From NCBI GenBank assembly GCA_022826825.1, contig JAJDUD010000027.1, positions 1,050 to 65,049 on the forward strand: a DNA stretch of 64,000 nucleotides. Direction: 5' to 3'. The notes under the pieces are model-generated. The model made no database searches, was not told the DNA's origin, and was given only the letters and a program-made list of their open reading frames with translations. The first letter of the stretch is position 1, and each line of letters starts with the position of its first letter. The position numbers and the translations under genes were made by a program. Positions 7,449 to 27,727 of this stretch are shown here, piece by piece. The DNA comes from Acidobacteriota bacterium. Lineage in GTDB: Bacteria; Acidobacteriota; Vicinamibacteria; Marinacidobacterales; Marinacidobacteraceae.

Positions 7449-7608
7449 TTCTCCGCGTCCTCCGGTCCGGAGTGTTGTCGCCTCGCGTTCGGAACGGTCG
7501 GCGAGTCCATCGGGGCTCGAGAAGCCGCGTCGGACTCACGATGCGGGTGCACCGTGCCATCGACGCTGGTTTCGCGCTCCCGCGCGATGCCGGCCAGAGG
7601 CCGGCCCG

Positions 7609-9639: not shown

Positions 9640-10692
9640 ATGCGCTCAAGGCGACTCATCCAGGCCGTGGACCTCCACGCCGCCGGCGAGCCCGGACGGG
9701 TCATCGTCGGGGGCGTCCTCGACGTGCCGGGCGAGACGATGTTCCGGAAGATGCAGTACCTCGAGCGCCACGCCGACGGGATCCGGAAGCTCATGCTCCG
9801 GGAGCCCCGCGGATATCCGGCCGCCAACTGCAACCTGGTGCTGCCGCCGACCCATCCCGACGCCGACGCGGGGTTCGTGATCATGGAGCAGACCGAGTAC
9901 CCGCCGATGTCCGGAACGAACACCATCTGCACGGTCACCGCGCTCATCGAGACCGGCATGGTGGCGGCCGTCGAGCCGCTGACCGAACTCACCCTGGAGA
10001 CGCCCGCCGGACTGATCCAGGTGCAGGCGAGCGTGGACGGCGGCAAGGTCACCCGGGTCACCTTCGAGAACGTGCCCGCCTTTCCGGTCCACCTGGGGGC
10101 GAAGGTGGAGATTCCCACCTTCGGCGAGGTGGAGGTGGACGTCTCCTGGGGCGGGATGTTCTACGCGATCGCCGACGCGGCCCGCTTCGGGCTCCGGATC
10201 GTCCCGGAGCACGGGCGGGAGCTGGCCCGGGTGGGGGCGATGGTGAAGCAGGCGGCGCGCGAACAGCTCGAGGCGGTGCATCCCGAGAACCCCGAGATCC
10301 GGCAGGCGAGCATCGGCGAACTCACCGGACCCTTCGACCCCGAAACCCGGACCGCCGCGAACGCGGTCTCGGTCGCGGTCGGCGACCTCGACTGGGACCG
10401 CCCCGAGACCTGGACCGGTGCGCTCGACCGCTCCCCCTGCGGGACGGGAACGTCCGCCCGGATGGCCTGCCTCCACGCACGGGGCCTGCTGGGAATCGGC
10501 GAGGACTTCCATCACCTCGGTCCGGTCGGCACCGAGTTCGTGGGACGGCTGGTCCGCACCACCACCGTGGGCGGGGTGCCGGCGGTGGTGCCGACGATCA
10601 GCGGGACCGCCTGGATCACCGGGACGGCGCAGTATTCCGTGGACCCGGGGGATCCCTTCCCGGAGGGGTTCACGGTCGGGGACATCTGGTAG
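9640..10692 (+). CDS. Proline racemase family protein (4-hydroxyproline epimerase / trans-3-hydroxy-L-proline dehydratase-like)
   Basis: 350 aa. It contains the family motif SPCGTGTSARMA and an overall PrdF/HypE-like layout. It starts 10 bp after the CRTAC1 stop, with a GGGAGAAG ribosome-binding site. Confidence 0.75.
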   Translation: MRSRRLIQAVDLHAAGEPGRVIVGGVLDVPGETMFRKMQYLERHADGIRKLMLREPRGYPAANCNLVLPPTHPDADAGFVIMEQTEYPPMSGTNTICTVTALIETGMVAAVEPLTELTLETPAGLIQVQASVDGGKVTRVTFENVPAFPVHLGAKVEIPTFGEVEVDVSWGGMFYAIADAARFGLRIVPEHGRELARVGAMVKQAAREQLEAVHPENPEIRQASIGELTGPFDPETRTAANAVSVAVGDLDWDRPETWTGALDRSPCGTGTSARMACLHARGLLGIGEDFHHLGPVGTEFVGRLVRTTTVGGVPAVVPTISGTAWITGTAQYSVDPGDPFPEGFTVGDIW

Positions 10693-10765: not shown

Positions 10766-10839
10766 TCCCGGCGCTGCGGCAAGCCGCATAAAATGTCCCG
10801 TTGCCCATCGCGGCAGCAGCAGGAGGGCTCTCCACGGCC

Positions 10840-12897
10840 ATGGTAAAGATGATTCGTTCTTCTGTCGGCAGGCGTTCTGACCGGCTGGTGTTCTTTGGCG
10901 CGCTCGCGTGCGCCGGGCTCTTGTTCGCCGGGTCCGCCGCGGCGCAGGATCCCGCGGAACTCGTGGTGGATCCGCCCGAGCTGACGCTCGAGGTCGGAAC
11001 AACCGCGCAGCTCACCGCGACCGTCCGGGACGCGGCCGGCAACGCGCTCGAGCGCGGCGTGGTGTTCTTCTCGCGGGCCCGGCGCTACGTGGGGGTGAAC
11101 CCGGCGGGGATGGTGGAAGCCCACCGTCCCGGCGAGCACACCCTGATCGCCATGGTTCCGGCGGACCCCGGCGCCATGGACCGGCGCGCCGAGCCGGCGC
11201 TGATGGTCGAGATTCCGGTGACGGTGCCGTGGCCGCCGCTCGCGAGCGTCGAGATCGCGGCGCTTCCGGGCAATCTCTACGCCGGGACCTCCCTGCGGGT
11301 CACCGCCACGGCCACGGACACCTCCGGGGCCGAGCGCAAACCCGACTTCGCGTGGTCGTCGAGCGACTCCGACGTGGCGACGGTCAGCCCGCACGGGGTC
11401 CTGATGCTCCACGGCGAGGGGTCGGCGACGATCTCCGCGAGCGCCGAGTCCGCCAGCGGCGACGCCACGGTCCGGGTGAGCGCCAATCCGGCGGTCCGCC
11501 TCGAGGTCTCCGCTGCCGAGGAAGAGGTTCGCACCGGCGACGTGGTCTGGTTCGAGGGGCGCGCCCTCGACGCCGGCGGCAACGAGGTTCCCGACTTCCC
11601 GATCCAGTACGCGGTCTCGACCCGGACCCCGGACACCCTGGTGGCGCCCGGCGCGGCCGCCTTCGTGGAGCCGGACGGCGCCTTCGTCGCCGAGCGGCCG
11701 GGCCTCCACACCGTGGTGGCCGCCGGGGGCTCGCTCACCGCCCGGGAGACGATCCGTGCGGTCGGCCGCAACCTGAAGAAGGACTGGGAGATCGTGGGCC
11801 GGGGTCCGGTGCGCGACCGGCACACCTCGGACCTGTGGGTCTGGGAGGGTCTCGACGGCCGCGACTACGCGATCACCGGGACGTGGGGCGCCGACGGGCA
11901 CGCCTACTTCTGGGACGTGACCGATCCGTCGAGCATCCACCTCGTGGACACCGTCCGGGTGGACGCCCGCACCGTGAACGACGTGAAGGTCTCGCCCGAC
12001 GGCAAGTTCGCGGTCATCAGCCGGGAAGGCGCCTCCAACCGGCGGAACGGGCTGGTGGTCCTCGACGTGGCGAACCCCACCGACGGGGTGAAGATCATCG
12101 CCCGCTACGACGACCAGTTGACCGGCGGCGTCCACAACACGTTCGTGGCCGAGAACCACATCCTGGCGCTCTCCGCCGGGCGGCGCTACGACATCCTGAA
12201 CGCCGAGGATCCCGAGAACCCCTACCGGGTGGGACGCTTCGAGCTCGACACTCCCGGCCACGGCATCCACGACGTCTGGGTGCAGGACGGCATCGCCTGG
12301 TCCTCGAACTGGACCGACGGGGTGGTCGCGGTGGACATCGGCGGCGGCGGCAAGGGCGGCGCCCCCAACAACCCCGTGATGATGGGCAGCTTCAAGTACC
12401 CGAACGGCTGGAACCACGCCGGCTTCCCCTACCGGAGCCAGTCCACCGGCAAGATGCTGGTGTTCGCCGGCGACGAGAACTTCCCCTGGGGCTTCGACCC
12501 CGAGGGCAAGCTCCCGGACCGGGCGGCGGGCTGGGTCCACATCGCCGAGTGGGATGAGGACGGCGGGATCGGCCGCGAGGTGGCGCGCTACCAGGTCCCC
12601 GAGGCCGGCACCCACAACCTCTGGATCGAGGACGACATCATGTATGTCGGCTACTACAACGGCGGCCTCCGGGTGGTGGACGTCTCCGGCGAGCTGCGCG
12701 GCGACCTCTACCAGCAGGGCCGGGAGATCAGCTTCTTCGAGCCGGCCGATCCCGAAGGCTTCAAGCCCAACGCCCCGTTCGTCTGGGGCCCGCAGCCTTT
12801 CAAGGGCACCATCTTCTTCACCGACTTCAACTCGGGCCTCTGGGCCGTCCGGCTCGTGGATCCCGAGACCCCGCGCAACATGGGGGAACCCAACTGA
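10840..12897 (+). CDS. Secreted Big_2 (bacterial Ig-like) + LVIVD-repeat beta-propeller protein, paralog 1
   Basis: 685 aa. A signal peptide is followed by Big_2-like segments (TATVRDAAGN..., ATISASAESASGDATVRV) and then LVIVD repeats (NGLVVLDVANP, GGLRVVDVSGE). It is ~55-60% identical to paralogs 2-4. Confidence 0.7.
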   Translation: MVKMIRSSVGRRSDRLVFFGALACAGLLFAGSAAAQDPAELVVDPPELTLEVGTTAQLTATVRDAAGNALERGVVFFSRARRYVGVNPAGMVEAHRPGEHTLIAMVPADPGAMDRRAEPALMVEIPVTVPWPPLASVEIAALPGNLYAGTSLRVTATATDTSGAERKPDFAWSSSDSDVATVSPHGVLMLHGEGSATISASAESASGDATVRVSANPAVRLEVSAAEEEVRTGDVVWFEGRALDAGGNEVPDFPIQYAVSTRTPDTLVAPGAAAFVEPDGAFVAERPGLHTVVAAGGSLTARETIRAVGRNLKKDWEIVGRGPVRDRHTSDLWVWEGLDGRDYAITGTWGADGHAYFWDVTDPSSIHLVDTVRVDARTVNDVKVSPDGKFAVISREGASNRRNGLVVLDVANPTDGVKIIARYDDQLTGGVHNTFVAENHILALSAGRRYDILNAEDPENPYRVGRFELDTPGHGIHDVWVQDGIAWSSNWTDGVVAVDIGGGGKGGAPNNPVMMGSFKYPNGWNHAGFPYRSQSTGKMLVFAGDENFPWGFDPEGKLPDRAAGWVHIAEWDEDGGIGREVARYQVPEAGTHNLWIEDDIMYVGYYNGGLRVVDVSGELRGDLYQQGREISFFEPADPEGFKPNAPFVWGPQPFKGTIFFTDFNSGLWAVRLVDPETPRNMGEPN

Positions 12898-14030
12898 TGC
12901 CTTCCCGCTCCCGCATCCGCTTCCTGGCGGCGTCCGTCCTGGTCCTTTCGCTGTCCCTCGCTCCGCTGGCGGCCGCCGAAGATCCCGAGCCGCCGCGGCG
13001 CAACTACTTCGTCTACGTCTGCGCCGAGTCGGACGACACCGTCCACCTGCTCCGCTACGGCCCCACCGGCTTCGAGGAGCTCGACCAGATCACGGTCGGC
13101 AGTTTCCCGACGGAGACCGAGGGCCCGCACGGAATCAACATCTCGCCCGACGGGCGCTACTGGTTCCTCTCCATCGCCCACGGCATGCCGTTCGGCGCCG
13201 TGCACAAGTACGAGACCGGGACCAACGAGTGGCTCGGGGACGCCACCCTCGGCATGTTCCCGGCGACGATGGACGTCTCGCCGAGCACCGGGCTGCTCTA
13301 CGTCGTCAACTTCAACCTCCACGGCGACCACGTCCCGAGCACCATCTCGGTGGTGGAGACCGGGACCATGATCGAGGTGGCCACCATTGACACCGGCGTG
13401 ATGCCGCACGGCGCGCGGATGAACGGCAAGGGCGACCGGCTCTACTCGGTGAACATGATGGACGACGAGCTGGTCGAAGTGGACACCATGCGCTTCGAGA
13501 TCGCCCGGCGCCTCTATCTCGGGACCGACCCGCATGCCGGACACGCCGGCATGGACCACGGTGACATGGGCGGCATGCGCGCGCCGGTGGTGAAGCCCAC
13601 CTGGGCGACCAAGCCCTCGCCCGCCGGCAAGGTGTACGTGGCCGGCAACGGCGACAGCGCCATCTACGAGGTGGACCTCGAGGGATGGGAGGTCTCGCGG
13701 CGGTTCGATGCCGGCCCGGGGGAGAACCCCTACAACCTCGAGATCACGTCGGACGGCTCGGTGCTGGTCGCCACCTACAAGTCCGGCAAGAGACTCGGCT
13801 TCTGGGACCTCGGCAGCGGCGAGCTGATCGCCGCGCCGGAGACCACGCGGCGGGTGCCGCACGGCGTGGTGGTCTCGGACGACGACCGCTACGCGATCGT
13901 GACCCTCGAAGGGGTCGGGGGCGAGCCGGGGACGGTCGAGGTCTATGACATCGCCACCACCCAGCGGGTCTCCGAGATCGACGTCGGCAAGCAGGCCGGC
14001 GGCATCATCTACTGGAAGGGCGAGCCGTAA
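12897..14030 (+). CDS. Secreted YVTN-family beta-propeller repeat protein with a His-rich loop
   Basis: 377 aa. A signal peptide is followed by repeated ~40-aa YVTN-like blades (LLYVVNFNLHGD, RLYSVNMMDDE, VYVAGNGDSAIYEVD). The loop reads DPHAGHAGMDHGDMGGM. Its start overlaps the paralog-1 stop by one nucleotide (TGATG). Confidence 0.65.
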   Translation: MPSRSRIRFLAASVLVLSLSLAPLAAAEDPEPPRRNYFVYVCAESDDTVHLLRYGPTGFEELDQITVGSFPTETEGPHGINISPDGRYWFLSIAHGMPFGAVHKYETGTNEWLGDATLGMFPATMDVSPSTGLLYVVNFNLHGDHVPSTISVVETGTMIEVATIDTGVMPHGARMNGKGDRLYSVNMMDDELVEVDTMRFEIARRLYLGTDPHAGHAGMDHGDMGGMRAPVVKPTWATKPSPAGKVYVAGNGDSAIYEVDLEGWEVSRRFDAGPGENPYNLEITSDGSVLVATYKSGKRLGFWDLGSGELIAAPETTRRVPHGVVVSDDDRYAIVTLEGVGGEPGTVEVYDIATTQRVSEIDVGKQAGGIIYWKGEP

Positions 14031-14050
14031 ATCGCGCCTGGGAGGCACTG

Positions 14051-16117
14051 ATGACCGAGCAGCACTCGAATTCCTGGACGCGGTTCCTGATCGCGTTCGG
14101 TTGCACCCTCGCGCTGGTCCCGGGACTCGCGCTGGCCCAGGAAGAGGCGGAGGCCGAGGAAGGCCCGCAGCCCGCCGAGCTCATCGTTACCCCGTCCGAG
14201 CTCGAGCTCGAGGTCGGCGACTCGCTGACGCTCGAGGCCGAAGTCCGGGACGGCGACGGCAACCCGATGGACCGCACGGTGGTGTTCTATTCGCGCCGCC
14301 GGCGCTCGGTGGGCGTGAACCCGGCGGGCATCGTCGAGGCCTACCGGCCGGGCGAGCACGTCCTGATCGCCATGGTGCCGAAGGACCCGGAGGACCTCCA
14401 CCGGCGGGCCGAACCCGCAGTGATGGTGGAGATCCCGGTGACGATCCCCAACCCGCCGGTGGCGACGGTCGAGGTCGCGAACCTGCCGGGGCACCTGTAC
14501 GCAGGGACCGAGATCGGCCTGCGCCCGACGGTCACGGACATCTCGGAGGCCGTCCGGCACGACGTGGAGGTCGGCTGGAGCACCGCGGACCCGTCGGTCG
14601 CGAGCGTGGACGCCCTCGGGGTGCTGACCCTGGTGAGCGCCGGGCGGACCACCCTGACGGTCTCCGCCGAGGAGGCTTCGAGCGACACCGCCATCGAGGT
14701 GCTCGCCAACCCGGTCGCCTCGATCACCCTCGGCGGGGCGCCGGCGGAGCCGGTGCGCACCGGCGACGTGGTGTTCTTCGAGGCGAAGGTCACGGACGCC
14801 TCCGGGAACGAGGTGCCCGACTACCCGGTGCAGTTCGCCACCTTCGGCATCCCCGCCGACGGGATCGTGGCCCCGGGCGCGATCGGCCAGGTCGATGACG
14901 CGGGCGCCTTCGTGGCCGAGCGGTCGGGAACCCACACGGTGATCGTGGACGGGTTCAACCACTCGGCGAGCGCGACGGTCGCGGTCGTCGCCCGGAACGT
15001 GCGGAAGGACGTCGAGGTCGTGGGACGGGGCCCCGTCCGCGACCGGCGCACCTCCGACCTCTGGGTCTGGGAGGGCACCGACGGCCGGGACTACGCCGTG
15101 ACCGGCACCCACAGCGCCGACGGCCACGCCTACTTCTGGGACGTCACCGACCCGTCGGCGATCTCGCTGATCGACACCGTGCGGGTGGACGCCCGGACGG
15201 TGAACGACGTCAAGGTCTCGGAGGACGGCAAGTTCTGCGTGATCAGCCGGGAGGGCGCCTCGAACCGGAAGAACGGCCTGGTGATCCTCGACGTCAGCGA
15301 CGTGCAGAACGGCATCGAGGTGATCGCCCGCTACGACGACCAGCTCAGCGGCGGCGTCCACAACGTCTTCATCGCCGAGGACCACATCTACGCGCTCTCG
15401 GCGGGCCGGCGCTACGACATCCTGAACGCCGAGGACCCGACGAACCCGTACCGGGTGGGACGCTTCGAGCTGGACACCCCCGGCCACTCCATCCACGACG
15501 TGTGGGTGGCGGACGGGATCGCCTACTCCTCCAACTGGAACGACGGGATCGTCGCGGTGGACGTGGGCGGCGGCGGCATGGGCGGTGCGCCGAACAACCC
15601 GGTGATGCTCGGAAGCACCCCGTACCCGAGCGGCTGGAACCACGCGGCGTATCCCTACCGCAGCAAGTCCACCGGCAAGTTCCTGATGATCGGCGGGGAC
15701 GAGGCGTTCCCGTACCAGTTGATGGAAGGGCCGCGAGCCCCGCGCCGGGCGGCCGGCTGGATCCACATCTTCGAGTGGGACGAGTGGGACAACCCCAAGG
15801 AAGTGGCCCGCTACCAGGTGCCGGAGGCGGGAACCCACAACCTGTGGGTCGAGGACGACATCCTCTACATCGCCTACTACAACGGCGGCCTGCGGGTCGT
15901 GGACATCTCCGGCGAGATGCGCGGCGACCTCTACCGCCAGGGGCGCGAGATCGCCATGTTCCGCCCCTTCGATCCCGAGACCGTCAAGCCGAACACCCCC
16001 TTCGTCTGGGGGCCGCAGCCCTACAAGGGCCACATCTTCATCGCCGACAACAGCTCGGGCCTCTGGGCGGTCAAGCTCGTGGACGCCGAGCCGCGCAACC
16101 TTGGTGAACCGCACTAG
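14051..16117 (+). CDS. Secreted Big_2 + LVIVD beta-propeller protein, paralog 2
   Basis: 688 aa. It is ~85-90% identical to paralogs 3 and 4, with a GGGAGG ribosome-binding site upstream. Confidence 0.75.
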   Translation: MTEQHSNSWTRFLIAFGCTLALVPGLALAQEEAEAEEGPQPAELIVTPSELELEVGDSLTLEAEVRDGDGNPMDRTVVFYSRRRRSVGVNPAGIVEAYRPGEHVLIAMVPKDPEDLHRRAEPAVMVEIPVTIPNPPVATVEVANLPGHLYAGTEIGLRPTVTDISEAVRHDVEVGWSTADPSVASVDALGVLTLVSAGRTTLTVSAEEASSDTAIEVLANPVASITLGGAPAEPVRTGDVVFFEAKVTDASGNEVPDYPVQFATFGIPADGIVAPGAIGQVDDAGAFVAERSGTHTVIVDGFNHSASATVAVVARNVRKDVEVVGRGPVRDRRTSDLWVWEGTDGRDYAVTGTHSADGHAYFWDVTDPSAISLIDTVRVDARTVNDVKVSEDGKFCVISREGASNRKNGLVILDVSDVQNGIEVIARYDDQLSGGVHNVFIAEDHIYALSAGRRYDILNAEDPTNPYRVGRFELDTPGHSIHDVWVADGIAYSSNWNDGIVAVDVGGGGMGGAPNNPVMLGSTPYPSGWNHAAYPYRSKSTGKFLMIGGDEAFPYQLMEGPRAPRRAAGWIHIFEWDEWDNPKEVARYQVPEAGTHNLWVEDDILYIAYYNGGLRVVDISGEMRGDLYRQGREIAMFRPFDPETVKPNTPFVWGPQPYKGHIFIADNSSGLWAVKLVDAEPRNLGEPH

Positions 16118-16130
16118 GGGACAACGAACC

Positions 16131-18188
16131 ATGAACCGGACACTGCACCTTCATCCCTTGCCCGTGGCGGTTGCCGCGCTTCTGCTGCTCGCCTTCCCGG
16201 CGTTCGCCCAGGAGGAAGCCGAGGAGACGGCCGCGCCCGAGCCCGCTGAACTCGTCATCACCCCGTCCGAGGTGGAACTCGAGGTCGGCGACTCGCTGAC
16301 GCTCCAGTCCGAGGTCCGGGACAGCGAAGGCAACCCGATGGACCGCACGGTGGTGTTCTACTCGCGCCGCCGGCGCTCGGTGGGGGTCAACCCGGCGGGC
16401 ATCGTCGAGGCTTACCGGCCCGGTGAGCACACCCTGATCGCCATGGTGCCGAAGGACCCGGAGGACACCAGCCGCCGGGCCGAGCCTGCGGTCATGGTGG
16501 AGATCCCGGTGACCATCCCCAATCCCCCGGTGGCCACCGTCGAGGTCGTGAACCTCCCGGGCCACCTCTACACGGGGACCGAGATCGGCCTCCGTTCCCT
16601 GGTCACCGACATCTCGGGCGCGGTCCGGAACGACGTCGAGGTGGGCTGGAGCAGCGCCGACCCGTCGGTGGCGAGCGTGGACTCCCTCGGGGTGCTGACC
16701 CTGATGGGCGCCGGCACGACGACGGTCACGGTGTCCGCCGAGGAGGCGTCGAGCGACGCCGCGGTCGAGGTGCTCGCCAACCCGGTGGCCTCGATCACCC
16801 TGAGCGGAGCGCCCGACGACGCGGTGCGGACCGGCGACGTGGTGTTCTTCACCGCGACGGCGATGGACGGTTCGGGGAATGCGGTGCCGGACTACCCGGT
16901 GCAGTTCGCGACCTTCGGGGTCCCGACGGACGGGATCGTGGCGCCCGGCGCCATCGGACAGGTGGACGAGGACGGCGCCTTCGTGGCGGAGCGCACCGGC
17001 ACCCACACGGTGATCGCCGACGGGTTCACGACGTCCGCCAGCGCGACGGTGGCGGTGGTGCCGAGGAACGTGCGCAAGGACGTGGAAGTGGTCGGGCAGG
17101 GCCCCGTCCGCGACCGGCGCACCTCGGACCTCTGGGTCTGGGAAGGCGTCGACGGCCGGGACTACGCGGTCACCGGCACCCACAGCGCGGACGGCCACGC
17201 CTACTTCTGGGACGTCACCGACCCCTCGGCGATCGCCCTGATCGACACGGTGCGGGTGGACGCCCGCACGGTGAACGACGTGAAGGTCTCCGAGGACGGG
17301 ATGTTCTGCGTGATCAGCCGCGAGGGGGCCTCGAACCGGAAGAACGGCCTCGTGATCCTCGACGTCAGCGATCCGCTGAACGGCGTCTCGGTGATCGCCC
17401 GCTACGACGACCAGCTCAGCGGCGGGGTCCACAACGTCTTCATCGCGGAAGACCACGTCTATGCGCTCTCCGCGGGACGCCGCTACGACATCCTGAACGC
17501 CGAGGACCCGACGAACCCCTACCGGGTGGGGCGCTTCGAGCTCGACACCCCCGGCCACTCGATCCACGACGTCTGGGTCCACGAGGGCATCGCGTATTCG
17601 TCCAACTGGAGTGATGGCGTGGTCGCCGTGGACGTGGGCGGCGGCGGCATGGGCGGGGCTCCCAACAACCCCGTGATGCTGGGCAAGACCCCGTATCCGA
17701 GCGGCTGGAACCACGCGGCGTATCCCTACAAGAGCCAGTCCACCGGCAAGTTCCTGATGATCGGCGGGGACGAGGCGTTCCCCTACCAGACGATGCGCGC
17801 GGAGCGGACTCCCGGCCGGGCCGCCGGCTGGATCCACATCTTCGAGTGGGACGACTGGGAGAACGCCCGCGAGGTAGCCCGCTACCAGGTGCCCGAGGCG
17901 GGGACCCACAACCTGTGGGTGGAGGACGACATCCTCTACATCGCCTACTACAACGGCGGCCTGCGGGTGGTGGACATCTCCGGCGAGCTGCGCGGCGACC
18001 TCTACCGCCAGGGGCGCGAGATCGCCATGTTCCGCCCGTTCGATCCCGAGAGCCGGGTCCCGAACGCCCCGATGGTCTGGGGACCGCAGCCCTACAAGGG
18101 CAACATCTTCCTCAGCGACATGAACTCGGGCCTCTGGGCCGTCAAGCTGGTGGATCCCGAGCCGATCAACCTGGGCGAACCGGAGTAA
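16131..18188 (+). CDS. Secreted Big_2 + LVIVD beta-propeller protein, paralog 3
   Basis: 685 aa. It starts 13 bp after the paralog-2 stop. Confidence 0.75.
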   Translation: MNRTLHLHPLPVAVAALLLLAFPAFAQEEAEETAAPEPAELVITPSEVELEVGDSLTLQSEVRDSEGNPMDRTVVFYSRRRRSVGVNPAGIVEAYRPGEHTLIAMVPKDPEDTSRRAEPAVMVEIPVTIPNPPVATVEVVNLPGHLYTGTEIGLRSLVTDISGAVRNDVEVGWSSADPSVASVDSLGVLTLMGAGTTTVTVSAEEASSDAAVEVLANPVASITLSGAPDDAVRTGDVVFFTATAMDGSGNAVPDYPVQFATFGVPTDGIVAPGAIGQVDEDGAFVAERTGTHTVIADGFTTSASATVAVVPRNVRKDVEVVGQGPVRDRRTSDLWVWEGVDGRDYAVTGTHSADGHAYFWDVTDPSAIALIDTVRVDARTVNDVKVSEDGMFCVISREGASNRKNGLVILDVSDPLNGVSVIARYDDQLSGGVHNVFIAEDHVYALSAGRRYDILNAEDPTNPYRVGRFELDTPGHSIHDVWVHEGIAYSSNWSDGVVAVDVGGGGMGGAPNNPVMLGKTPYPSGWNHAAYPYKSQSTGKFLMIGGDEAFPYQTMRAERTPGRAAGWIHIFEWDDWENAREVARYQVPEAGTHNLWVEDDILYIAYYNGGLRVVDISGELRGDLYRQGREIAMFRPFDPESRVPNAPMVWGPQPYKGNIFLSDMNSGLWAVKLVDPEPINLGEPE

Positions 18189-18239
18189 GGAGAACCCTGG
18201 GAGCGCCGGCCAGTCCTCCCGGGTGGGGCCTTCAGACCA

Positions 18240-18458
18240 GGAGCGCCGGTGTTCACACCGGCATCGCGGCCGCAGGCCGCGAAACTCCCGGCGCCATCGC
18301 GCCACATTGCGGGGACCCGAGACGAAGACGGCGAAATCGGAGTGCGCGCGCGCCGTTGTCGTCGCGCCACTCCCTTTGACGGGGGCGCCATGCGGCGAAA
18401 TGAAGCCCGGGAGTTTCGCCCGCTGCGCGGGCGATGCCGGTGTGAACACCGGCGCTCC
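18240..18458. mobile_element. Family-2 MITE-like element, 219 bp, with perfect 28-bp terminal inverted repeats (ggagcgccggtgttcacaccggcatcgc ... gcgatgccggtgtgaacaccggcgctcc)
   Basis: The terminal repeats are exact reverse complements. The interior is also partly palindromic. Related arms occur at 10716, 39964, 42691 and 42999. A family-1 right-end fragment (ctgcatttgcacagcaactgg) follows at 18470..18497. Confidence 0.7.
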
Positions 18459-18572
18459 TCGCCATCCCCGCCGTCGGCCGGGCTGCATTTGCACAGCAAC
18501 TGGCCGGCACCGCCCGCCGCAGGCGGGCGAAATCCCCGCGGTGCCGTCTACACCCGCGGGGCGGTCGCGTCT

Positions 18573-19046
18573 TCAGGTCGTGAACAGGAAGCCGAAGACC
18601 GCGATCAGCACCGTGATCAGGAGGGCCAAGGCGCCAAACAGGATCTGTACCTGAGCCTTCAGCCCATCCAAACGGGCGGCGATGACGTCCAGCTTGCGGT
18701 CGCGTTCCGCGAGCAGCTCGCCATGGGCGGCGACGGTATCGGTCAGCTTCGCGACGGCTTCCGTCAAGGCCTCGAGCTTCCGATCCTGTGCGTCGAACCG
18801 CTGGCGCATCTCCAGCAGGAACGGCTGAAGCTGCGGGGTAAGGGCTTCGGAAACCACGGCGCGGATCCGCTTTTCCGCAGTATAGGCGACGGGGGCGTCG
18901 AACCCGGCCTCCAACAGAGTGTGGAAGAGGGCGCCGTTGGGCGCGCCTTTCGAAGACGGCATGTCTGCTGTGGGGGCGCGCGCGTCCGGCGGCGGCTGGG
19001 ACCTCTCTGGTCCGGGGGTAGGTGGCTGCGGGTCGGTCTCGGGCAC
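18573..19046 (-). CDS. Hypothetical protein, Pro-rich N-terminus, coiled coil and C-terminal TM helix
   Basis: 157 aa, ending ...LKAQVQILFGALALLITVLIAVFGFLFTT. It sits between LVIVD paralogs 3 and 4. Confidence 0.4.
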   Translation of the reverse strand: MPETDPQPPTPGPERSQPPPDARAPTADMPSSKGAPNGALFHTLLEAGFDAPVAYTAEKRIRAVVSEALTPQLQPFLLEMRQRFDAQDRKLEALTEAVAKLTDTVAAHGELLAERDRKLDVIAARLDGLKAQVQILFGALALLITVLIAVFGFLFTT

Positions 19047-19222
19047 CGGGAACTCCTTCGGAAATGGGCTGTCGGAAGACGCGGGTGTCTTCCCCTACTT
19101 CTCCAGACGCAATTCCGGCCCGAAAATTCCCGCTGCGCGGAGGTTTGTGGAAAAGTCGGAGTGAAGATGGCTCAGGCGGCGGGGCGGGCGTATATTCCCG
19201 AGCGTCGAGGGACCGCACGACC

Positions 19223-21277
19223 ATGACCCGAACCTTTCGTTTCCATCCCATCTCCCTTGTGGCCGCCGCACTGCTCCTTCTCGCCTTCCCGGCGTTCGCG
19301 CAGGAAGAAGAGGAGGCGGCCGGCCCCGAGCCCGCCGAACTCGTCATCACCCCGAGCGAGCTGACGCTCGAGGTGGGGGCGACGGCGACCCTCGAGGCCG
19401 AGGTCCGCGATGACGACGGCAACGTCATGGACCGCACCGTGGTCTTCTTCTCGCGCCGGCGCCGTTCGGTGGGCGTGAACCCCGCCGGGATCGTGGAGGC
19501 CTTCCGGCCCGGCGAGCACACCCTGATCGCCATGGTGCCGCGGGACCCCGAGGACACCGACCGGCGGGCCGAACCCGCGGTGATGGTGGAGATCCCGGTC
19601 ACGATCCCCAACCCGCCGGTGGCCACCGTCGAGGTGGCCAACCTGCCGGGCCATCTCTACGCCGGCACCGAGATCGGGCTGCGTTCGACGGTCACCGACA
19701 CCTCGGGCGCGGTCCGCAGCGACGTGGAGGTGGGCTGGAGCAGCGCCGACCCGTCGGTGGCCGGCGTGGACGCCCTCGGGGTCCTCACCCTGACGGGCGT
19801 GGGGCGGACGACCGTCACCGTCACCGCCGAGGAGGCGTCCGGCGACACCGCGATCGAGGTGCTCGCCAACCCGGTTGCCTCCATCACGCTGACCGGGGCG
19901 CCGGCGGACGCGATCCGCACCGGCGACGTGGTCTTCTTCGAGGCGCAGGTCACCGACGCCTCCGGGAACGAAGTTCCCGACTACCCGGTCCAGTTCGCGA
20001 CGCTCGGGATTCCCGCGGACGGGATCGTGGCGCCCGGAGCCATCGGCCAGGTGGACGCGGACGGCGCGTTCGTCGCCGAACGGTCGGGGACGCACACCGT
20101 GATCGCCGACGGGTTCACGAAGTCGGCGAGCGCCACGGTGGCGGTTACGTCCCGGAACGTGCGAAAGGACGTCGAGATCGTGGGGCAGGGCCCGGTCCGC
20201 GACCGCTACACCTCCGACCTCTGGGTCTGGGAGGGCACGGACGGCCGGGACTACGCGGTGACCGGCACCTGGGGCGCCGATGGCCACGCCTACTTCTGGG
20301 ACGTCACCGATCCCGCGGCGATGTCGCTCATCGACACGGTTCGGGTGGACGCCCGGACGGTGAACGACGTGAAAGTCTCGGAGGACGCGAAGTTCTGCGT
20401 GATCAGCCGGGAAGGGGCCTCCAACCGGCGGAACGGTCTCGTCATCCTCGACATCAGCGACCCGCAGAGCGGGGTCCAGGTGATCGCCCGCTACGACGAC
20501 CAGCTCACCGGCGGGGTCCATAACGTCTTCATCGCCGAAGACCACATCTACGCACTGTCGGCGGGGCGGCGCTTCGACATCCTGAATGCCGAAGACCCGA
20601 CGAACCCGTACCGGGTGGGCCGCTTCGAACTGGACACGCCCGGCCACTCGATCCACGACGTGTGGGTGGAGGACGGGATCGCCTACTCCTCGAACTGGGA
20701 CGACGGCATCGTCGCGATCGACGTGGGCGGCGGCGGCATGGGCGGCGCGCCCAACAACCCGGTCATGCTCGGCAGCGCGCCGCACCCGAGCGGCTGGAAC
20801 CACGCGGCGTATCCCTATCGGAGCGAGTCCACCGGCAAGTTCCTGATGATCGGCGGGGACGAGGCGTTCCCGTACCAGACGATCGGGGAATCGGACACGC
20901 CGGACCGGGCCGCCGGCTGGATTCACATCTACGAGTGGGACGAATGGGAAGACGCCCGCGAGGTGGCGCGCTACCAGGTGCCCGAGGCCGGAACCCACAA
21001 CCTGTGGGTCGAGGACGACATCCTCTACATCGGCTACTACAACGGCGGCCTGCGGGTAGTGGACATCTCAGGCGACCTGCGGGGCGACCTCTACCGGCAG
21101 GGACGGGAGATCGCGGTCTTCTGGCCGCAGGACCCGGAGAGCTTCATCCCCAACGCGCCCATGGTCTGGGGGCCGCAGCCCTACAAGGGTCACATCTTCG
21201 TCGCCGACCACCACTCGGGCCTCTGGGCGGTGAAGCTCGTGGACCCGGAGCCGGTGAACCTGGGAGAGCCGCAGTAG
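19223..21277 (+). CDS. Secreted Big_2 + LVIVD beta-propeller protein, paralog 4
   Basis: 684 aa, starting MTRTFRFHPISLVAAALLLLAFPAFAQEEEE. It is ~85-90% identical to paralogs 2 and 3. Confidence 0.75.
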   Translation: MTRTFRFHPISLVAAALLLLAFPAFAQEEEEAAGPEPAELVITPSELTLEVGATATLEAEVRDDDGNVMDRTVVFFSRRRRSVGVNPAGIVEAFRPGEHTLIAMVPRDPEDTDRRAEPAVMVEIPVTIPNPPVATVEVANLPGHLYAGTEIGLRSTVTDTSGAVRSDVEVGWSSADPSVAGVDALGVLTLTGVGRTTVTVTAEEASGDTAIEVLANPVASITLTGAPADAIRTGDVVFFEAQVTDASGNEVPDYPVQFATLGIPADGIVAPGAIGQVDADGAFVAERSGTHTVIADGFTKSASATVAVTSRNVRKDVEIVGQGPVRDRYTSDLWVWEGTDGRDYAVTGTWGADGHAYFWDVTDPAAMSLIDTVRVDARTVNDVKVSEDAKFCVISREGASNRRNGLVILDISDPQSGVQVIARYDDQLTGGVHNVFIAEDHIYALSAGRRFDILNAEDPTNPYRVGRFELDTPGHSIHDVWVEDGIAYSSNWDDGIVAIDVGGGGMGGAPNNPVMLGSAPHPSGWNHAAYPYRSESTGKFLMIGGDEAFPYQTIGESDTPDRAAGWIHIYEWDEWEDAREVARYQVPEAGTHNLWVEDDILYIGYYNGGLRVVDISGDLRGDLYRQGREIAVFWPQDPESFIPNAPMVWGPQPYKGHIFVADHHSGLWAVKLVDPEPVNLGEPQ

Positions 21278-21281
21278 GGGG
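21251..21281 (+). repeat. Direct repeat, left copy: the last ~31 bp of LVIVD paralog 4 including its stop codon (ccggtgaacctgggagagccgcagtaggggg)
   Basis: It matches 22295..22325 at 29 of 31 positions. The similarity extends ~35 bp if the upstream ggacc is included. Confidence 0.8.
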
Positions 21282-21288
21282 GAGCCCG

Positions 21289-21429
21289 CTACCGATCGCC
21301 CCTCCCGGGAGCGCCCGGCAGCAAGGGTGCGACCAGGGCCCGGGCGACCACGAGGTCCTGCTCGACCTGGGCATCCTGGACCCAGGGCGCGCGCGCTCGC
21401 CACTCGGTGATGTAGTCGCGCGGGATCAC
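21289..21429 (-). pseudogene. Truncated AbiEii/AbiGii nucleotidyltransferase toxin: only the N-terminal 46 codons remain
   Basis: The minus-strand GTG at 21429 overlaps the abiEi stop as GTGA. The translation VIPRDYITEWRARAPWVQDAQVEQDLVVARALVAPLLPGAPGRGDR* matches the conserved AbiEii N-terminus (...W....W..DAQVEQDL..SRAL). It ends at a stop codon 12 bp after the LVIVD-4 stop. Confidence 0.55.
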
Positions 21430-22232
21430 GTCTCCACCTCGACTTCGGCGTTGATGCGCAGCCGCCACCGCCGGTCGCGCGGACCGTCATGGGGGCTGCC
21501 GGGCACGAGCAGCACGGTGTCGCGCGCACGGCGGCGCACGTCGCGCTCGAGGGTCGATGCCTTGTCGGCCGCGCCAACGAGGTCGAGCAGGTAACCGAGG
21601 CGCTGCGCCCAGGAAACCGGCGCCGTCCCCGCTGCTGCCGCGAGCCGACCCGGCCGGATGTGCTCGGCGAGTTCCGCAATGACCGTGGCCGCCTGAGCAA
21701 GTCCCCCGACGCGTTTCTGGTAGCCGACCAGGTCAACGGCTGTGGCTTCGAGGCTCGATACCCGGATCGCCCCACGCGGCGTGTTGAAGCTCTGGACGGG
21801 AACCTCGGCGAGGCGGGTGCGAGTGATGAAGGAAACCGCGACGCTGCCGCACGAAATCGGCCGGCGATACCCGGCCAGCGCCACCTGGAAGGTTTGCGGA
21901 CGGTGGTGCGCGGCGCCGTGGAACTGGGCTGCCGACAGGAGCGCGGCGTAGTAGCGCCGATCGAGATGCGCCATGAACGCGGGGACGAACTGCTCGGCCG
22001 GCAGGCAGCCGAGGCGCCGGTACTCTGGGGGTACGACGACGTAGAAGCCGCGCCCGGGACTCGCGATCAGCCCTTTGTTCGCCAGCCGGCTGAGCGCGAG
22101 TCTGGCCGCCGCCGGCGAGACGCCGAGAAGCCGGCGCATCTCCATCGCCGTGAAGTGGTGTCGGCCGGCAGCCGCAAAGTCGGCAACCAGGCTGCCGGCT
22201 CGGCGTGGCCTCGACTCCGATTTCATCCACAT
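21426..22232 (-). CDS. Type IV toxin-antitoxin AbiEi-family antitoxin / transcriptional regulator
   Basis: 268 aa. The N-terminal wHTH (MEMRRLLGVSPAAARLALSRLANKGLIASPGRGFYVVVP) and the C-terminal AbiEi domain are both present. The upstream region at 22233..22290 is AT-rich and unusual for this genome, and it contains a gtatc-N7-gatac palindrome. Confidence 0.65.
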   Translation of the reverse strand: MWMKSESRPRRAGSLVADFAAAGRHHFTAMEMRRLLGVSPAAARLALSRLANKGLIASPGRGFYVVVPPEYRRLGCLPAEQFVPAFMAHLDRRYYAALLSAAQFHGAAHHRPQTFQVALAGYRRPISCGSVAVSFITRTRLAEVPVQSFNTPRGAIRVSSLEATAVDLVGYQKRVGGLAQAATVIAELAEHIRPGRLAAAAGTAPVSWAQRLGYLLDLVGAADKASTLERDVRRRARDTVLLVPGSPHDGPRDRRWRLRINAEVEVET

Positions 22233-22294
22233 AATGTATCATTAAGCGATACTTTAAGCAGTCATTTGCGAAATCTCTGTGAACGCAGGACCAG

Positions 22295-22325
22295 CCGGTG
22301 GACCTGGGAGAGCCGCAGTAGGCGG
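22295..22325 (+). repeat. Direct repeat, right copy (ccggtggacctgggagagccgcagtaggcgg)
   Basis: This is a near-identical copy of the LVIVD-4 3' end at 21251..21281. It lies ~1 kb downstream and brackets the abiEi/abiEii-remnant module. Confidence 0.8.
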
Positions 22326-22483
22326 GTGCGCCTTCAGGTCGGCACCGGCTGGAGGCAGCCCAGCGGACGAAGGCCGGATCAGCCTGACGCACGGCTTCGC
22401 CACCGTTCCCGCTGTCCGACGCTCCCTATACTCCGCGCCGCGACGAGGGGCGCAGAACGCTGGAGCGCATCGATCCGGGACTG

Positions 22484-23197
22484 GTGGACGCCCTTTGGCT
22501 GGGAGTCCTGATCCTGGTTTCGGGCGTGTCGGCCTGGTCGGGCGCCCTCGCCGTCCGGGAGGCCCGGCGGGAGACGCCGCCGGAGTTGACGGCGGCCGAG
22601 AAGCGCTCCATCTACCGGCGCGGGAGCGTCATGCTGTGGGTGCTCGCGGTGGGGACCCTGGCCTGGTGGGGCTTCGCCGGGCGGGACTGGGCCGCGCTGG
22701 GCTTCGCGGCGCCGCGCTGGACCTGGCCGGCGGCCGGCGCCGCCCTCGCCCTCATCGTCTGGCTGGCCGCGGATACCGCAAGGCAAACGGCGCCGTCGCG
22801 GATCTCCGGCACCCGGGAGCGATGGCGGATCCAGAACCCCTACATCCCGGTCTCCGGAGCCGAGTTCCGGAGCTACACGGTCCTGGCCGTGAGCGCCGGG
22901 ATCTGCGAGGAGATCGTTTACCGGGGCTTCATGATCGCCGTCCTCCGCGCCTGGTTCGGCCCCGGATGGGAGGGAGCGGCGCTCGCTGTCGGGCTACCGG
23001 CCGTCTTCTTCGGGGCCGCTCACGCCGCCCAGGGATGGCGCGGCGTCGTCGGGGCCGCGGGGGGCGCCTTGGCGTGGGGATTCATGGTGATCGAAACCGG
23101 TTCCGTCTGGCCCGGCATCGTGTTCCACGTCCTGTGGGACCTGTTCATGGGGTGGCTGGGGTTCCGGTTCCTGCGGCCTTCCCCGACCGGGACCTGA
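22484..23197 (+). CDS. CPBP-family intramembrane metalloprotease (CAAX protease/Abi domain)
   Basis: 237 aa and multi-TM. It carries the conserved EEIVYRG ... FFGAAH ... HVLWD motifs. Confidence 0.7.
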   Translation: MDALWLGVLILVSGVSAWSGALAVREARRETPPELTAAEKRSIYRRGSVMLWVLAVGTLAWWGFAGRDWAALGFAAPRWTWPAAGAALALIVWLAADTARQTAPSRISGTRERWRIQNPYIPVSGAEFRSYTVLAVSAGICEEIVYRGFMIAVLRAWFGPGWEGAALAVGLPAVFFGAAHAAQGWRGVVGAAGGALAWGFMVIETGSVWPGIVFHVLWDLFMGWLGFRFLRPSPTGT

Positions 23198-23295
23198 TCC
23201 GTACTCTGCCTGGATTCGCCTTCGGAGCCGGCGCCGGACGCCGGCTCACGCTGGCGTTCCGAGCGGCTGCGCCATCCGGGGGAATGAGGTCCGTC

Positions 23296-23349
23296 CCGCC
23301 GCCCGCCTTCGGCGGGCTGTGCCGACCGGAGGTCGGCGTTCCAAGCCGG
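23296..23349. repeat. GC hairpin (gcccgcc-ttc-ggcgggc) followed by a family-1 31-bp hairpin unit in reverse orientation (gtgccgaccggaggtcggcgttccaagccgg)
   Basis: It lies between convergent genes (CPBP protease and S9 peptidase). Copies of the same unit are at 7670, 7836, 27363, 27525, 27618, 36287 and 36407. Confidence 0.6.
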
Positions 23350-23368
23350 TGCGCCACGCGGGCCAGGA

Positions 23369-25348
23369 TCACTCCCCCGCGGGGTATTCGATGTCGGTGA
23401 CCAGAAACTCCTCGAAGAAATCGAGCATGTCGTGGAGCTTGTCGATCGTGTTCTGCCTCCCGTAGACGTAGTACCCCTCACCCGGATACGCCTTGTAGCG
23501 CACGATCTTGTAGTGCTGGTCGAGCTTGCGGGCGAAGTTCAGCGCGGCCTGCGGCTGGTCTTCGCGCATCCGCCAGCCGGCCGCCACGCCCTCGCCCTGG
23601 ATCACGAAGGTCGGCGTCGTGACCTCGTGCGCCTTCAGGATGGACGAGCTGTTGAGGTACGTCTCGCGGTTTTCGGGATACGGGCCGAGTTCGTACTCGA
23701 CCAGCTTGATGTGCTGGAGCTCGTGGACCGTGGAGTGGAACTCGGTCATGTCGCCATAGCCCGACAGCGAGATGGCCGCCTGGAAGACGTCGGGGGCGAA
23801 GGCGACCGCCGCCATGGTCATGATCCCGCCGTAGCTGGTCCCGGTGACCCCGATCCGGTCGGGGTCCACGTCGGACCGGCCCTTCAGGTAGTCCACCCCG
23901 GCGAGGACGTCCTCGAGGTCGCAGTGCCCCCAGCACTCGTTGTTGAGGTCCTCGAAGGCGAGGCCGTAGCCGGAACTGCCGCGGATGTTCGGCATGAGCA
24001 CGACGTAGCCGCGCTGGGCGAAGAAGTGGACCTGCTGGTGCCGCCGGAACTGGTCGTCGAACTGGGACGTGGGTCCGCCGTGGATCCAGACCACGCCGGG
24101 GAAGCGTTCGCCGGGCGCCGCGTCCGGCGGCGTGTGCACGTAGGCCTCGATGGTGAGGCCGTCGGTGCTCGGGTAGCGGATCTTTTCGGGGAGCTCGACG
24201 CGGGGCTCGGCGTCCGCGCCGATCTCGCTGTGCGCGAGCGCGCTCTCTCCCGAGGCGAGGTCGAGCACGAAGAGTTCCGCGGGGCGCGCCGGGGTCTCGA
24301 AGGTGTAGCTGATCCGGGTCCCGTCGGGCGACCACTCGGGACGGAGCGCCGCTCCGGTCTCCCGCTCCACGAGCGTCCGGCCCCCGGACCCGTCCACCGC
24401 CGCCAGCCGCAGGGAATGGACGCCGCCCCGGTTCTCGGTGTAGCTGACCCAGGCGCCGTCGGGCGACCAGCGGGCGTCGCTCTGGTCGTGGTCCGCAGCC
24501 GCCAGCGGCCGGGGCTCACCCCCCGCGCGCGGCGCGATCCAGAAGTTCAGCCAGCCGCTGCGCTGGGAGCGGAAGAGCAGGTGCTCGCCGTCGGGCGACG
24601 GCTGGGCGGCGCCGAACGCCCGGCCCGCGCGGTAGTCGAAGAAGCCGGTGTCCGCGATCACGGTGCGCGGATTCCGGCCGTCGGGGGTGACCTCGATCAC
24701 GTCGTGGTCCACCCAGCGGTCGTCCATGCGCACGTAGAAGAGCGCCCCGGAGTCCGGGGCCCAGCTCGGATACCCCTCGTAGAGCGGGTCGCTGGTGAGC
24801 CGGTGCACCTCGCCGCCGGGGACCGACACCTTCCAGATGTCCATGGTGCCGAACCGGTCGCCGGAGAACGCGATCCAGGCGCCGTCCGGGGACCAGGCGA
24901 GCCCGTTCGCCCGCGCCGAGAGCCGGGTGAGCCGCCGGTCCGTACCCTCCTCGGCCGACCACAGGTAGATGTCCGGCGCGCCGTCACGGTCGGTGGTGTA
25001 GGCGACGAAACGGCCGTCGGGCGACCAGACCGGCTGCGGAGCCCCGAGCGATCCCACCCCGCTGAGCGCCAGGTCCCCGGTGAGCACCCGGAACGAGCCG
25101 TCCCCGGGGTCCACGCCGGCGAGGTCGCCCCCGGCCGACACGAAGGTGATCAGGGACCCGTCCGGCGCCCACTGGGGCGAACGGCTTCCCCCGACCGCGG
25201 CGCGCAGGTCTACGAGTTCGGCGGCGCCGATCGGGCCGGTGAGCTCGTCGGCCGTCCCGGACGGCGAGCCGCCTCCCTCCAGGGCGCACGCGAGCCCCGC
25301 GGCGAGCGCGCACCCGGCTGCGACGGCAAGAAATCGGTGCTGTTTCAT
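23369..25348 (-). CDS. S9-family serine peptidase (prolyl oligopeptidase/dipeptidyl-aminopeptidase-like) with an N-terminal TolB-like beta-propeller
   Basis: 660 aa, starting at the minus-strand ATG 25348 (MKQHRFLAVAAGCALAAGLACA signal). The propeller repeats are WSPDG-type. The catalytic domain reads GVTGTSYGG (GxSxGG) ... HGGP. The long N-terminal extension in ORF 23369..26878 is rejected. Confidence 0.8.
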   Translation of the reverse strand: MKQHRFLAVAAGCALAAGLACALEGGGSPSGTADELTGPIGAAELVDLRAAVGGSRSPQWAPDGSLITFVSAGGDLAGVDPGDGSFRVLTGDLALSGVGSLGAPQPVWSPDGRFVAYTTDRDGAPDIYLWSAEEGTDRRLTRLSARANGLAWSPDGAWIAFSGDRFGTMDIWKVSVPGGEVHRLTSDPLYEGYPSWAPDSGALFYVRMDDRWVDHDVIEVTPDGRNPRTVIADTGFFDYRAGRAFGAAQPSPDGEHLLFRSQRSGWLNFWIAPRAGGEPRPLAAADHDQSDARWSPDGAWVSYTENRGGVHSLRLAAVDGSGGRTLVERETGAALRPEWSPDGTRISYTFETPARPAELFVLDLASGESALAHSEIGADAEPRVELPEKIRYPSTDGLTIEAYVHTPPDAAPGERFPGVVWIHGGPTSQFDDQFRRHQQVHFFAQRGYVVLMPNIRGSSGYGLAFEDLNNECWGHCDLEDVLAGVDYLKGRSDVDPDRIGVTGTSYGGIMTMAAVAFAPDVFQAAISLSGYGDMTEFHSTVHELQHIKLVEYELGPYPENRETYLNSSSILKAHEVTTPTFVIQGEGVAAGWRMREDQPQAALNFARKLDQHYKIVRYKAYPGEGYYVYGRQNTIDKLHDMLDFFEEFLVTDIEYPAGE

Positions 25349-27285: not shown

Positions 27286-27727
27286 CACCGGCTTGGAACG
27301 CCGGCCAGTTGCTGTGAAAATGCAGTCCGGCGGGTCGGCCGAGCGTCTTGATGGCGCAGCCGGCTTGGAACGCCGGCCTCTGGCCGGCACGCGCTGCGCG
27401 ACCGCGCAGCGCACGGCACGGCGCCAACCTGCGGGATGGTTCTCTCTCGGTGCAAACGGGCGGAGGGGACGCTCCCGGACCTCTGTCGCCCGAGACGACG
27501 AGCGGCGCGTCGCCCGCGGGCCTTCGGCCCGCTGTGCCGACCCGAGGTCGGCGTTCCAAGCCGTACGCGCCACGGGGCGGTTCAGCCCTACGCCGTTGCG
27601 GCCCTGCGGGCCGCGTGCCGACCGGAGGTCGGCGTTCCAAGCCGGCTGCGCCATCACGGCTGTTGGCCGACCCCGCAGGATTGCATGTTCACAGCAACTG
27701 GCTGGAGGCCGGCGGTCCCAGCCGTTT
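27286..27727. mobile_element. Family-1 composite MITE-like element, copy B, with ~45-bp imperfect terminal inverted repeats (cggcttggaacgccggccagttgctgtgaaaatgca ... tgcatgttcacagcaactggctggaggccggcggtcccagccg) and three internal 31-bp hairpin units
   Basis: The ends are reverse complements of each other, as seen in the sequence. The hairpin units are at 27363, 27525 and 27618. The interior is ~85-90% identical to 7609..7867. Confidence 0.65.

Follow-up and report, generated by a model that had tools for sequence, protein, structure and literature searches.

A probable degenerating AbiE cassette with a retained antitoxin beside an LVIVD gene array in an Acidobacteriota genome

The AbiE genes at the locus

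The stretch of DNA analysed here (the window) is 64,000 nucleotides (nt) long, corresponds to positions 1,050-65,049 on the forward strand of contig JAJDUD010000027.1 (assembly GCA_022826825.1, Acidobacteriota bacterium) and has a guanine-plus-cytosine (GC) content of about 70%. It contains an AbiE locus, in which the antitoxin gene abiEi is followed by what is left of the toxin gene abiEii. AbiE is a phage-defence system of toxin and antitoxin (TA), of type IV, that has recently been argued to be type VII. The two genes lie between the 3' end of LVIVD4, the fourth of a series of tandem LVIVD/Big_2 paralogues, and a gene for an Rce1-like/CPBP intramembrane protease, and they are bracketed by a pair of short direct repeats. 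A first-pass annotation had placed the repeats, an intact abiEi and a 46-codon abiEii remnant here, and all of them are present as described.

The antitoxin gene (21426-22232, minus strand) encodes a protein with the N-terminal winged helix-turn-helix (wHTH) and the AbiEi_1 C-terminal domain of an AbiEi antitoxin and autorepressor. Both parts are found at full length: Pfam returns PF09407 AbiEi_1 at 2.4e-45 (residues 76-218, profile 1-142/142) and PF13338 AbiEi_4 at 8.5e-07 (residues 16-67), and the PADLOC AbiEi profile PDLC02266 matches at 2.6e-86 over profile positions 5-257/258. Counted from the first ATG the protein has 268 amino acids (aa); its relatives start at the second ATG (22226) and have 266 aa, and this second ATG is likely to be the true start. 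The closest AbiEi homologues are 82-94% identical, while an exact-protein lookup of the window AbiEi gave no match. Among 107 homologues, 93 alignment columns reach a conservation of 95% or more, and at every one of them the window protein has the consensus residue.

The abiEii remnant (21289-21429, minus strand) starts at GTG 21429, overlaps the abiEi stop as GTGA, as had been described, and runs to a stop at 21289-21291. Its first 33 residues match the PADLOC AbiEii profile (positions 2-34/260, 1.2e-11), and the 46 codons have no Pfam match. No other AbiEii gene was found within the 64-kb window by tblastn mapping. What the window holds is not a functional TA or abortive infection (Abi) pair of co-transcribed antitoxin and toxin: abiEi alone is intact.

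Loss of the toxin by an in-frame deletion

Twelve related Vicinamibacteria genomes, mostly metagenome-assembled, have the same slot between LVIVD4 and the Rce1-like gene, and the state of the slot in each was read from a tblastn map of 13 distinct genomic contexts (labelled L001, L003 and so on below). The remnant was compared with the intact 271-aa AbiEii found in L003, L004, L011, L013, L016 and L017. Its junction was assigned by eye against L003, L011 and L017, MAFFT having misplaced the 3' part of the remnant.

The remnant consists of abiEii codons 1-35 (21325-21429), one hybrid codon (21322-21324) and the last ~10 codons together with the original stop (21289-21321). The tail LLPGAPGRGDR* represents the original AbiEii C-terminus, which in the intact protein of L003 ends ...SLLPGAPGRREE*, L017 being closer at the DNA level. 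The toxin gene was thus not cut short by a new stop, as had been proposed, but carries an internal deletion of ~225 codons (675 bp) that is in frame, with its junction at 21322|21323 and ~1 nt of microhomology. The conserved N-terminus is retained, as first noted, but not alone, the C-terminal codons also being original abiEii sequence. The Pfam AbiEii domain (aa 30-250 of the intact protein) falls inside the deleted segment, as do the motifs FRGGTAL, EDIDL, KLRALYQR and RDLFD of an intact orthologue. All four motifs (I-IV) of the AbiEii nucleotidyltransferase (NTase; DUF1814, PF08843) are gone from the remnant. These motifs, I (hG[G/S]), II (DhD), III and IV (+DxxD), are needed for GTP binding and, every one of them, for toxicity (PMC3985639).

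L001 has exactly the junction of the window, yet its surrounding genes are 2-5% diverged from those of the window. This makes the deletion a real one that is older than the split between the two, and the stop codon is not the sequencing error that it might have been. In the common ancestor of the window and L001, an illegitimate deletion using the ~1 nt of microhomology removed abiEii codons ~36-260 in frame. Alignment with the related genomes, which had been suggested as a check, gave full-length abiEii at the same site in six and a cassette-free site in three. Together with the full-length AbiEi profile matches, this upholds the view that the toxin was deleted and the antitoxin kept.

Selection on the orphan antitoxin

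Since the window and L001 share the deletion, all the abiEi divergence between them postdates toxin loss. For this pair the ratio of nonsynonymous to synonymous substitution rates (dN/dS) is 0.28 (19.5 nonsynonymous and 24.5 synonymous differences), and pairs with an intact toxin give 0.18-0.28. The orphan abiEi is therefore still under purifying selection. In neither of the two orphan lineages, the window and L001, does abiEi contain a frameshift or a stop. The remnant itself differs between the window and L001 at 3 of 141 nt (1 nonsynonymous, 2 synonymous), which is below the neutral expectation from the dS of 0.066-0.12 in neighbouring genes; the significance is marginal and the difference could be due to chance.

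Promoter and putative operator

The promoter region had been described as unusually AT-rich, and the measured GC content indeed drops to 0.60 across 22100-22399, upstream of abiEi, against 0.70-0.75 around it. An alignment of 12 loci revealed an inverted repeat in this region (22225-22263, minus strand in the window), with 16-nt arms at 22248-22263 and 22225-22240, a 7-nt spacer and one end in the start codon. The consensus in the relatives is ATCTGCATAAAGTATC-N7-GATATATTATGCAGAT, and the inverted repeat is kept in the 12 loci, including some in unrelated genomic contexts. It resembles the operators that experiments have defined for Streptococcus agalactiae AbiEi and for Rv2827c (PMC7319586; PMC3985639) and is on that ground a putative AbiEi operator. 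AbiEi may well still be made, be functional and repress its own promoter through this palindrome. The operator arms of L001 match the consensus.

A sigma-70 scan of 21200-22520 found no promoter, the sigma-70 consensus being uninformative for Acidobacteriota, and the sole terminator-like match in the same interval lies inside abiEi. Rfam gave no RNA family in window positions 20500-23500, in L009 or in L015.

The flanking repeats and the LVIVD4 3'-end duplicate

A search of 18500-24000 returned one long direct repeat of 37 nt (34/37 identical), with copies at 21249-21285 and 22293-22329 at a spacing of 1044. In the slightly shorter extent first given for these repeats (~31 bp), 29 of 31 positions match. 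The 64 kb of the window have exactly two occurrences of the 30-nt core, AGCCGGTGRACCTGGGAGAGCCGCAGTAGG, where 0.00 are expected and 100 shuffles gave none. Copy 1 (plus strand) consists of the last 9 LVIVD4 codons, the TAG stop and 8 nt beyond it, in agreement with the earlier derivation of the repeats from the 3' end of this gene. Copy 2 (plus strand) is non-coding.

The origin of copy 2 is seen in L004. Here the cassette is flanked by a 300-nt direct repeat of 96% identity (L004:9638-9937 and L004:11692-11991), comprising the full LVIVD4 3' end on one side and, on the other, a non-coding fragment that abuts the abiEi promoter. This fragment has the same position and orientation in L004 and in the genomes with a reduced form, and what is left of it varies greatly. 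In L004 300 nt remain, 96% identical to LVIVD4 of that genome, and in L003 the repeat is 133 nt long (87%). L017 has ~150 nt of the same 5' part as L003, heavily mutated, and L011 the 3' ~85 nt at ~75% identity. The window keeps ~8 nt of LVIVD sequence (GAGGAC) and, after an internal deletion, the terminal 37 nt, and L001, L013, L014 and L016 have essentially nothing. The fragment alignments show nested, lineage-specific deletions. Copy 2 is thus the final remainder, in the window, of an LVIVD4 3'-end duplication of ~300 nt, which eroded differently in each lineage. The short repeats are thereby accounted for as remnants, rather than as the target-site duplication or att core of a 1-kb element that had been considered, and copy 2 is not the 3' end of a further intact LVIVD paralogue, cassette-free relatives holding the same four paralogues. 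The repeats probably have no present function; 37 nt could at most support rare RecA-independent deletion.

Upstream of the internal deletion in the duplicate (as placed against L003, L004, L013, L014 and L017) the window has a junction remnant, GTGAACGCAGGACC (22279-22292, plus strand), made up of cassette-proximal junction sequence and the GAGGAC piece of the duplicate. The GTGAAC at 22279 was considered as W-V codons of the LVIVD fragment and dropped, comparison of L004 with L001 and L003 suggesting that it is mostly cassette-proximal junction. This sequence comparison suggests that GAGGAC alone is derived from LVIVD4.

The L004 fragment matches its own LVIVD4 at 94%, the orthologues of that gene at 87-92% and paralogues 1-3 at 78-84%, and it contains the LVIVD4-specific stretch GCGGTCTTC.GGCCGCAGGA. 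The fragment is thus of the LVIVD4 type, which excludes a distinct fifth paralogue as its source and likewise the repair of LVIVD4 from another paralogue; the latter was rejected, both copies being LVIVD4-type. The L004 fragment also shares lineage-specific variants with its own LVIVD4. Its closest match being LVIVD4 of the same genome, gene conversion in the L004 lineage is indicated.

The same slot in related genomes

The comparison shows a self-contained cassette of ~1.7 kb, comprising operator-promoter, abiEi and abiEii, between the LVIVD4 3' end and the Rce1-like gene in a clade of Vicinamibacteria. Intact AbiEi with the 271-aa AbiEii is present in L003 (= L012), L004 (of which L005-L007 are further copies of the same type), L011, L013, L016 and L017. 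L001 has the same 46-codon remnant as the window, whereas L014 carries an independent toxin wreck (L014:7160-7710) in which AbiEii residues 1-15 are followed by ~330 nt of unrelated sequence with stops and then by residues 213-271, next to an intact abiEi. L009, L010 and L015 have no cassette, and L008 (568-3202; also L049) has other cargo, namely an AAA_14/DUF4143 ATPase gene and a gene with a CarboxypepD_reg domain. The gap between LVIVD4 and the Rce1-like gene is therefore a variable cargo slot. A toxin without its antitoxin was found in none of the genomes compared.

A scan of a genome collection with the Rce1-like protein found ten close loci, all in Acidobacteriota metagenome-assembled genomes and including Candidatus Marinacidobacterium sp. 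(OZ244986) and a Vicinamibacteria chromosome (OZ220713). A metagenome scan with the same protein added one close locus, of the L008 type. The contigs of the closest AbiEi homologues have the same neighbourhood of Rce1-like gene, abiEi, abiEii and convergent LVIVD gene. The cassette is also portable: copies with 82, 75 and 72% AbiEi identity lie beside ParDE, PIN or transposase genes and lack LVIVD sequence. In one of these (L046) the homology to L004 begins ~30 nt upstream of the ATG and ends a little beyond the abiEii stop.

In a bootstrapped neighbour-joining tree built from 2307 nt of flanking genes, the occupied L004 and L003 are basal, and the window with L001 comes next. Every genome without the cassette has an occupied genome as its sister, namely L009 with L011 (support 100), L015 with L016 (100) and L010 with L014 (84). 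With position, orientation and fragment shared across the occupied genomes, a single ancestral insertion is the parsimonious account. The pattern suggests one ancestral insertion, at least three losses of the whole cassette and two independent toxin inactivations. Alternatively, the cassette may have been passed on more than once by homologous recombination in its conserved flanks.

Two further features of the slot were observed in these genomes. L009 (~3170-3290) and L015 (~9880-9990) share an element of ~110 nt upstream of the Rce1-like gene (TTTCATGCCCGGC.GGGTGTGCAGGAGGACC.ATCATGACGGTTTCTCCCGGTGGGGGCCGCGCGGGAGCGCGA), which is absent from the occupied genomes and without an Rfam match. In L016 (4795-4870) a deletion at GTGGAC microhomology took the whole LVIVD fragment together with the 5' end of the Rce1-like gene, and the abiEi promoter now stands directly against Rce1 coding sequence.

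Neighbouring genes and repeats

LVIVD4 (19220-21277, plus strand; Pfam LVIVD and Big_2, tblastn map) ends with the stop TAG at 21275-21277. It probably starts at ATG 19220 (685 aa, with a signal peptide beginning MTRTFRF...) rather than at GTG 19022 of the mechanical open reading frame (751 aa); its orthologues have 685-707 aa. The four tandem LVIVD/Big_2 paralogues occupy 10801-21277, and their order is kept in the related genomes that cover the region. A DDE transposase lies between LVIVD paralogues in L003, and an ion-channel gene and an HSDR_N gene in L004. The tblastn map shows extra truncated LVIVD copies elsewhere in L003 and L004. On the right-hand side, the gene for the Rce1-like/CPBP intramembrane protease (22484-23197, plus strand; Pfam) is conserved in the relatives and served as a synteny anchor.

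A palindrome resembling repetitive extragenic palindromic (REP) sequences, ACGCCGACCTCCGGTCGGCAC, has nine copies in the window against 0.45 expected. Its sites are 7587-7858, 23319-23339, 27370-27635 and 36297-36437, with a degenerate copy at 22327-22347. Members of this family also follow the LVIVD4 stop of cassette-free relatives, and in L046 the family is present downstream of the cassette.

Discussion

Collectively these data make it probable that the locus is a degenerating AbiE (AbiEi/AbiEii) TA/Abi cassette, an old insertion that has lost its toxin and is still flanked by the relic of a duplication. This makes it a case of genes decaying in the ordinary way, not of a mobile element that is active, and the flanking repeats are a relic of the older ~300-bp duplication.

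The best reading of the ancestral event is an insertion that duplicated the LVIVD4 3' end. The earlier proposal of an element integrated at the 3' end of the gene therefore survives as regards an insertion that duplicated the gene end; the repeats are not of att type, and no integrase or transposase accompanies the cassette at any of the loci. The 300-nt duplication might have come about by insertion at a staggered break with fill-in synthesis, by Campbell-type integration of a circle carrying the LVIVD4 end, or by duplication followed by deletion. At the empty sites LVIVD4 has one intact end, which is what a recombination event between the two repeats would produce.

Several points weigh against this account as a whole. 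The data could not discriminate among the three origins proposed for the duplication. The intergenic sequence of the empty sites is non-homologous to that of the occupied relatives and not alignable with it, so that a repeat-mediated origin of the empty sites stays conjectural; the sequence just after the LVIVD4 stop was compared at these sites, and intergenic turnover is too fast for a repeat-mediated deletion to be assigned. Furthermore, the empty sites may be never-occupied alleles exchanged by homologous recombination rather than losses. The AbiEi tree, which is itself unsupported, is not fully congruent with the flank tree, and this allows for some exchange between lineages. Copy 2 in the window, with 3 mismatches in 37, is better kept than the equivalent part in L011 (~75%), a difference that calls for gene conversion, of the kind seen in L004, or for varying rates. 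The window operator is degenerate, its arms matching at 10/16 compared with 14/16 in the consensus of the relatives. Finally, the 5' third of abiEi and the promoter/operator are 8.6% and 41% diverged from L001, respectively (21971-22292), compared with 2-3.6% in the flanks. The divergence in this interval points to local replacement or accelerated change, and the excess in the promoter and abiEi 5' end could mean relaxed regulation and the start of decay.

These last observations are also those that speak for regarding the whole module, abiEi included, as non-functional debris in which the antitoxin has simply not yet degraded and the similarity of the repeats is incidental to recent gene conversion. 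The degenerate operator arms and the unusual divergence from L001 would fit, as would the sigma-70 scan without a promoter match and the loss of the whole cassette at least three times, which marks the locus as dispensable. However, abiEi has after toxin loss the same dN/dS as in intact pairs, no conserved AbiEi residue has been lost and no frameshift or stop has arisen in either orphan lineage, and the scan is not informative for promoters in this phylum. We therefore regard debris as unlikely.

A more mobile origin, with the ~1-kb module as a site-specifically integrating element or its remnant and the repeats as attL and attR, would share with icd, e14 and icdC the topology of intact gene, cargo and displaced 3' fragment (PMC13626634). 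The presence of the cassette family in other genomic contexts is in keeping with it, and so is the REP-like hairpin that follows copy 2 in the window just as it follows the LVIVD4 stop in cassette-free relatives. An att-flanked island would have a recombinase inside and conserved att cores at both ends, but in none of the nine occupied loci do the repeats enclose an integrase, recombinase or transposase. Nor is there room for a deleted one, the abiEii stop lying 12-75 nt from the LVIVD4 stop and the fragment abutting the promoter. The repeats range among the relatives from 0 to 300 nt in length and from 67 to 96% in identity, a pseudogene-like decay unlike a conserved att core, and the copies in other contexts (L046-L048) are without such repeats. 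An att-type element is thus very unlikely here. Still less probable, to the point that we would be surprised by it, is that there was once a fifth tandem LVIVD paralogue, of which copy 2 is the 3' end and most of which was lost with most of abiEii in one event, as the first-pass annotation had offered. A tandem array of four paralogues is prone to unequal recombination, and truncated extra LVIVD copies do exist elsewhere in L003 and L004. Against this, the fragment is LVIVD4-type by identity and by its specific stretches, L004 and the L001 lineage have in common where the fragment meets the cassette on its upstream side (~300 nt from the stop), and cassette-free relatives have four paralogues, not five. 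Moreover, the abiEii deletion is gene-internal and in frame, leaves the repeats untouched and is separated from the fragment by abiEi; the two therefore cannot be one event.

If the preferred reading of a decaying cassette is right, AbiEi has most likely been kept to neutralise related AbiEii-type toxins encoded elsewhere or on mobile DNA, that is for anti-addiction or immunity, or as a regulator. It is conceivable, though a long shot, that the 46-codon mini-abiEii is not inert and forms with the orphan AbiEi a domesticated pair of antitoxin and catalytically dead mini-toxin. In the crystal structure of the S. agalactiae AbiEi:AbiEii complex, the N- and C-terminus of the toxin make up two of the three regions of contact with AbiEi (bioRxiv 10.64898/2026.01.19.700257), and the mini-abiEii keeps just these terminal segments, in frame and translationally coupled to abiEi by the GTGA overlap. 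Its few changes since the split from L001, noted above, would fit as well. If true, the mini-toxin peptide could, for example, modulate the AbiEi repressor, or serve as a decoy, giving immunity against incoming AbiE cassettes. A related and likewise remote possibility is that the 300-nt gene-end duplication acts as a recombinase-free switch for the gain and loss of the defence cassette.

The locus reveals no new mechanism, a decaying TA/Abi cassette with a kept antitoxin being already a known kind of system. Its interest lies in a natural AbiE decay series at one orthologous site, with intact forms, a toxin that died twice independently and the whole cassette lost at least three times. It adds a useful data point on how TA systems turn over in uncultured marine Acidobacteriota and for the view that orphan antitoxins serve anti-addiction or immunity, and it illustrates that a much longer gene-end duplication can leave short 'att-like' repeats as its final trace.

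The cassette resembles the AbiE systems of Lactococcus and Streptococcus agalactiae and the Rv2827c-Rv2826c pair of M. tuberculosis (MenA/MenT relatives) in its bicistronic abiEi-abiEii order with overlapping stop and start, and in an AbiEi with N-terminal wHTH and AbiEi_1 C-terminal domain (PMC3985639, PMC7319586). The AbiEii of the intact relatives is likewise a DUF1814 NTase with motifs I-IV, and the promoter has an inverted repeat, here with 16-nt arms and a 7-nt spacer and ending at the start codon, compared with 23-bp repeats and a 3-bp spacer in S. agalactiae. The window differs in that its toxin lacks the whole catalytic domain and cannot act in a TA or Abi pair.

Orphan antitoxins that still sit in their original context are common, as a survey of Klebsiella found (PMC7192599). 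Our locus is alike in that the antitoxin stayed in its original context after toxin loss, in the anti-addiction and cross-neutralisation roles proposed for it and in the expected order of decay, toxin first. The survey did not name AbiE; here we have a cross-species decay series at one site together with a dN/dS measured after the loss. The arrangement also recalls icd, e14 (phage 21) and icdC in E. coli K-12, where an intact gene is followed by an insert and a pseudogene made of a C-terminal fragment, and where recombination between the copies can excise the insert and restore a single gene (PMC13626634). The prophage e14, however, spans 15 kb and brings its own integrase and a defined att site; the insert at the LVIVD4 end is a 1.7-kb TA cassette without a recombinase, and its gene-end fragment is decaying and mostly gone.

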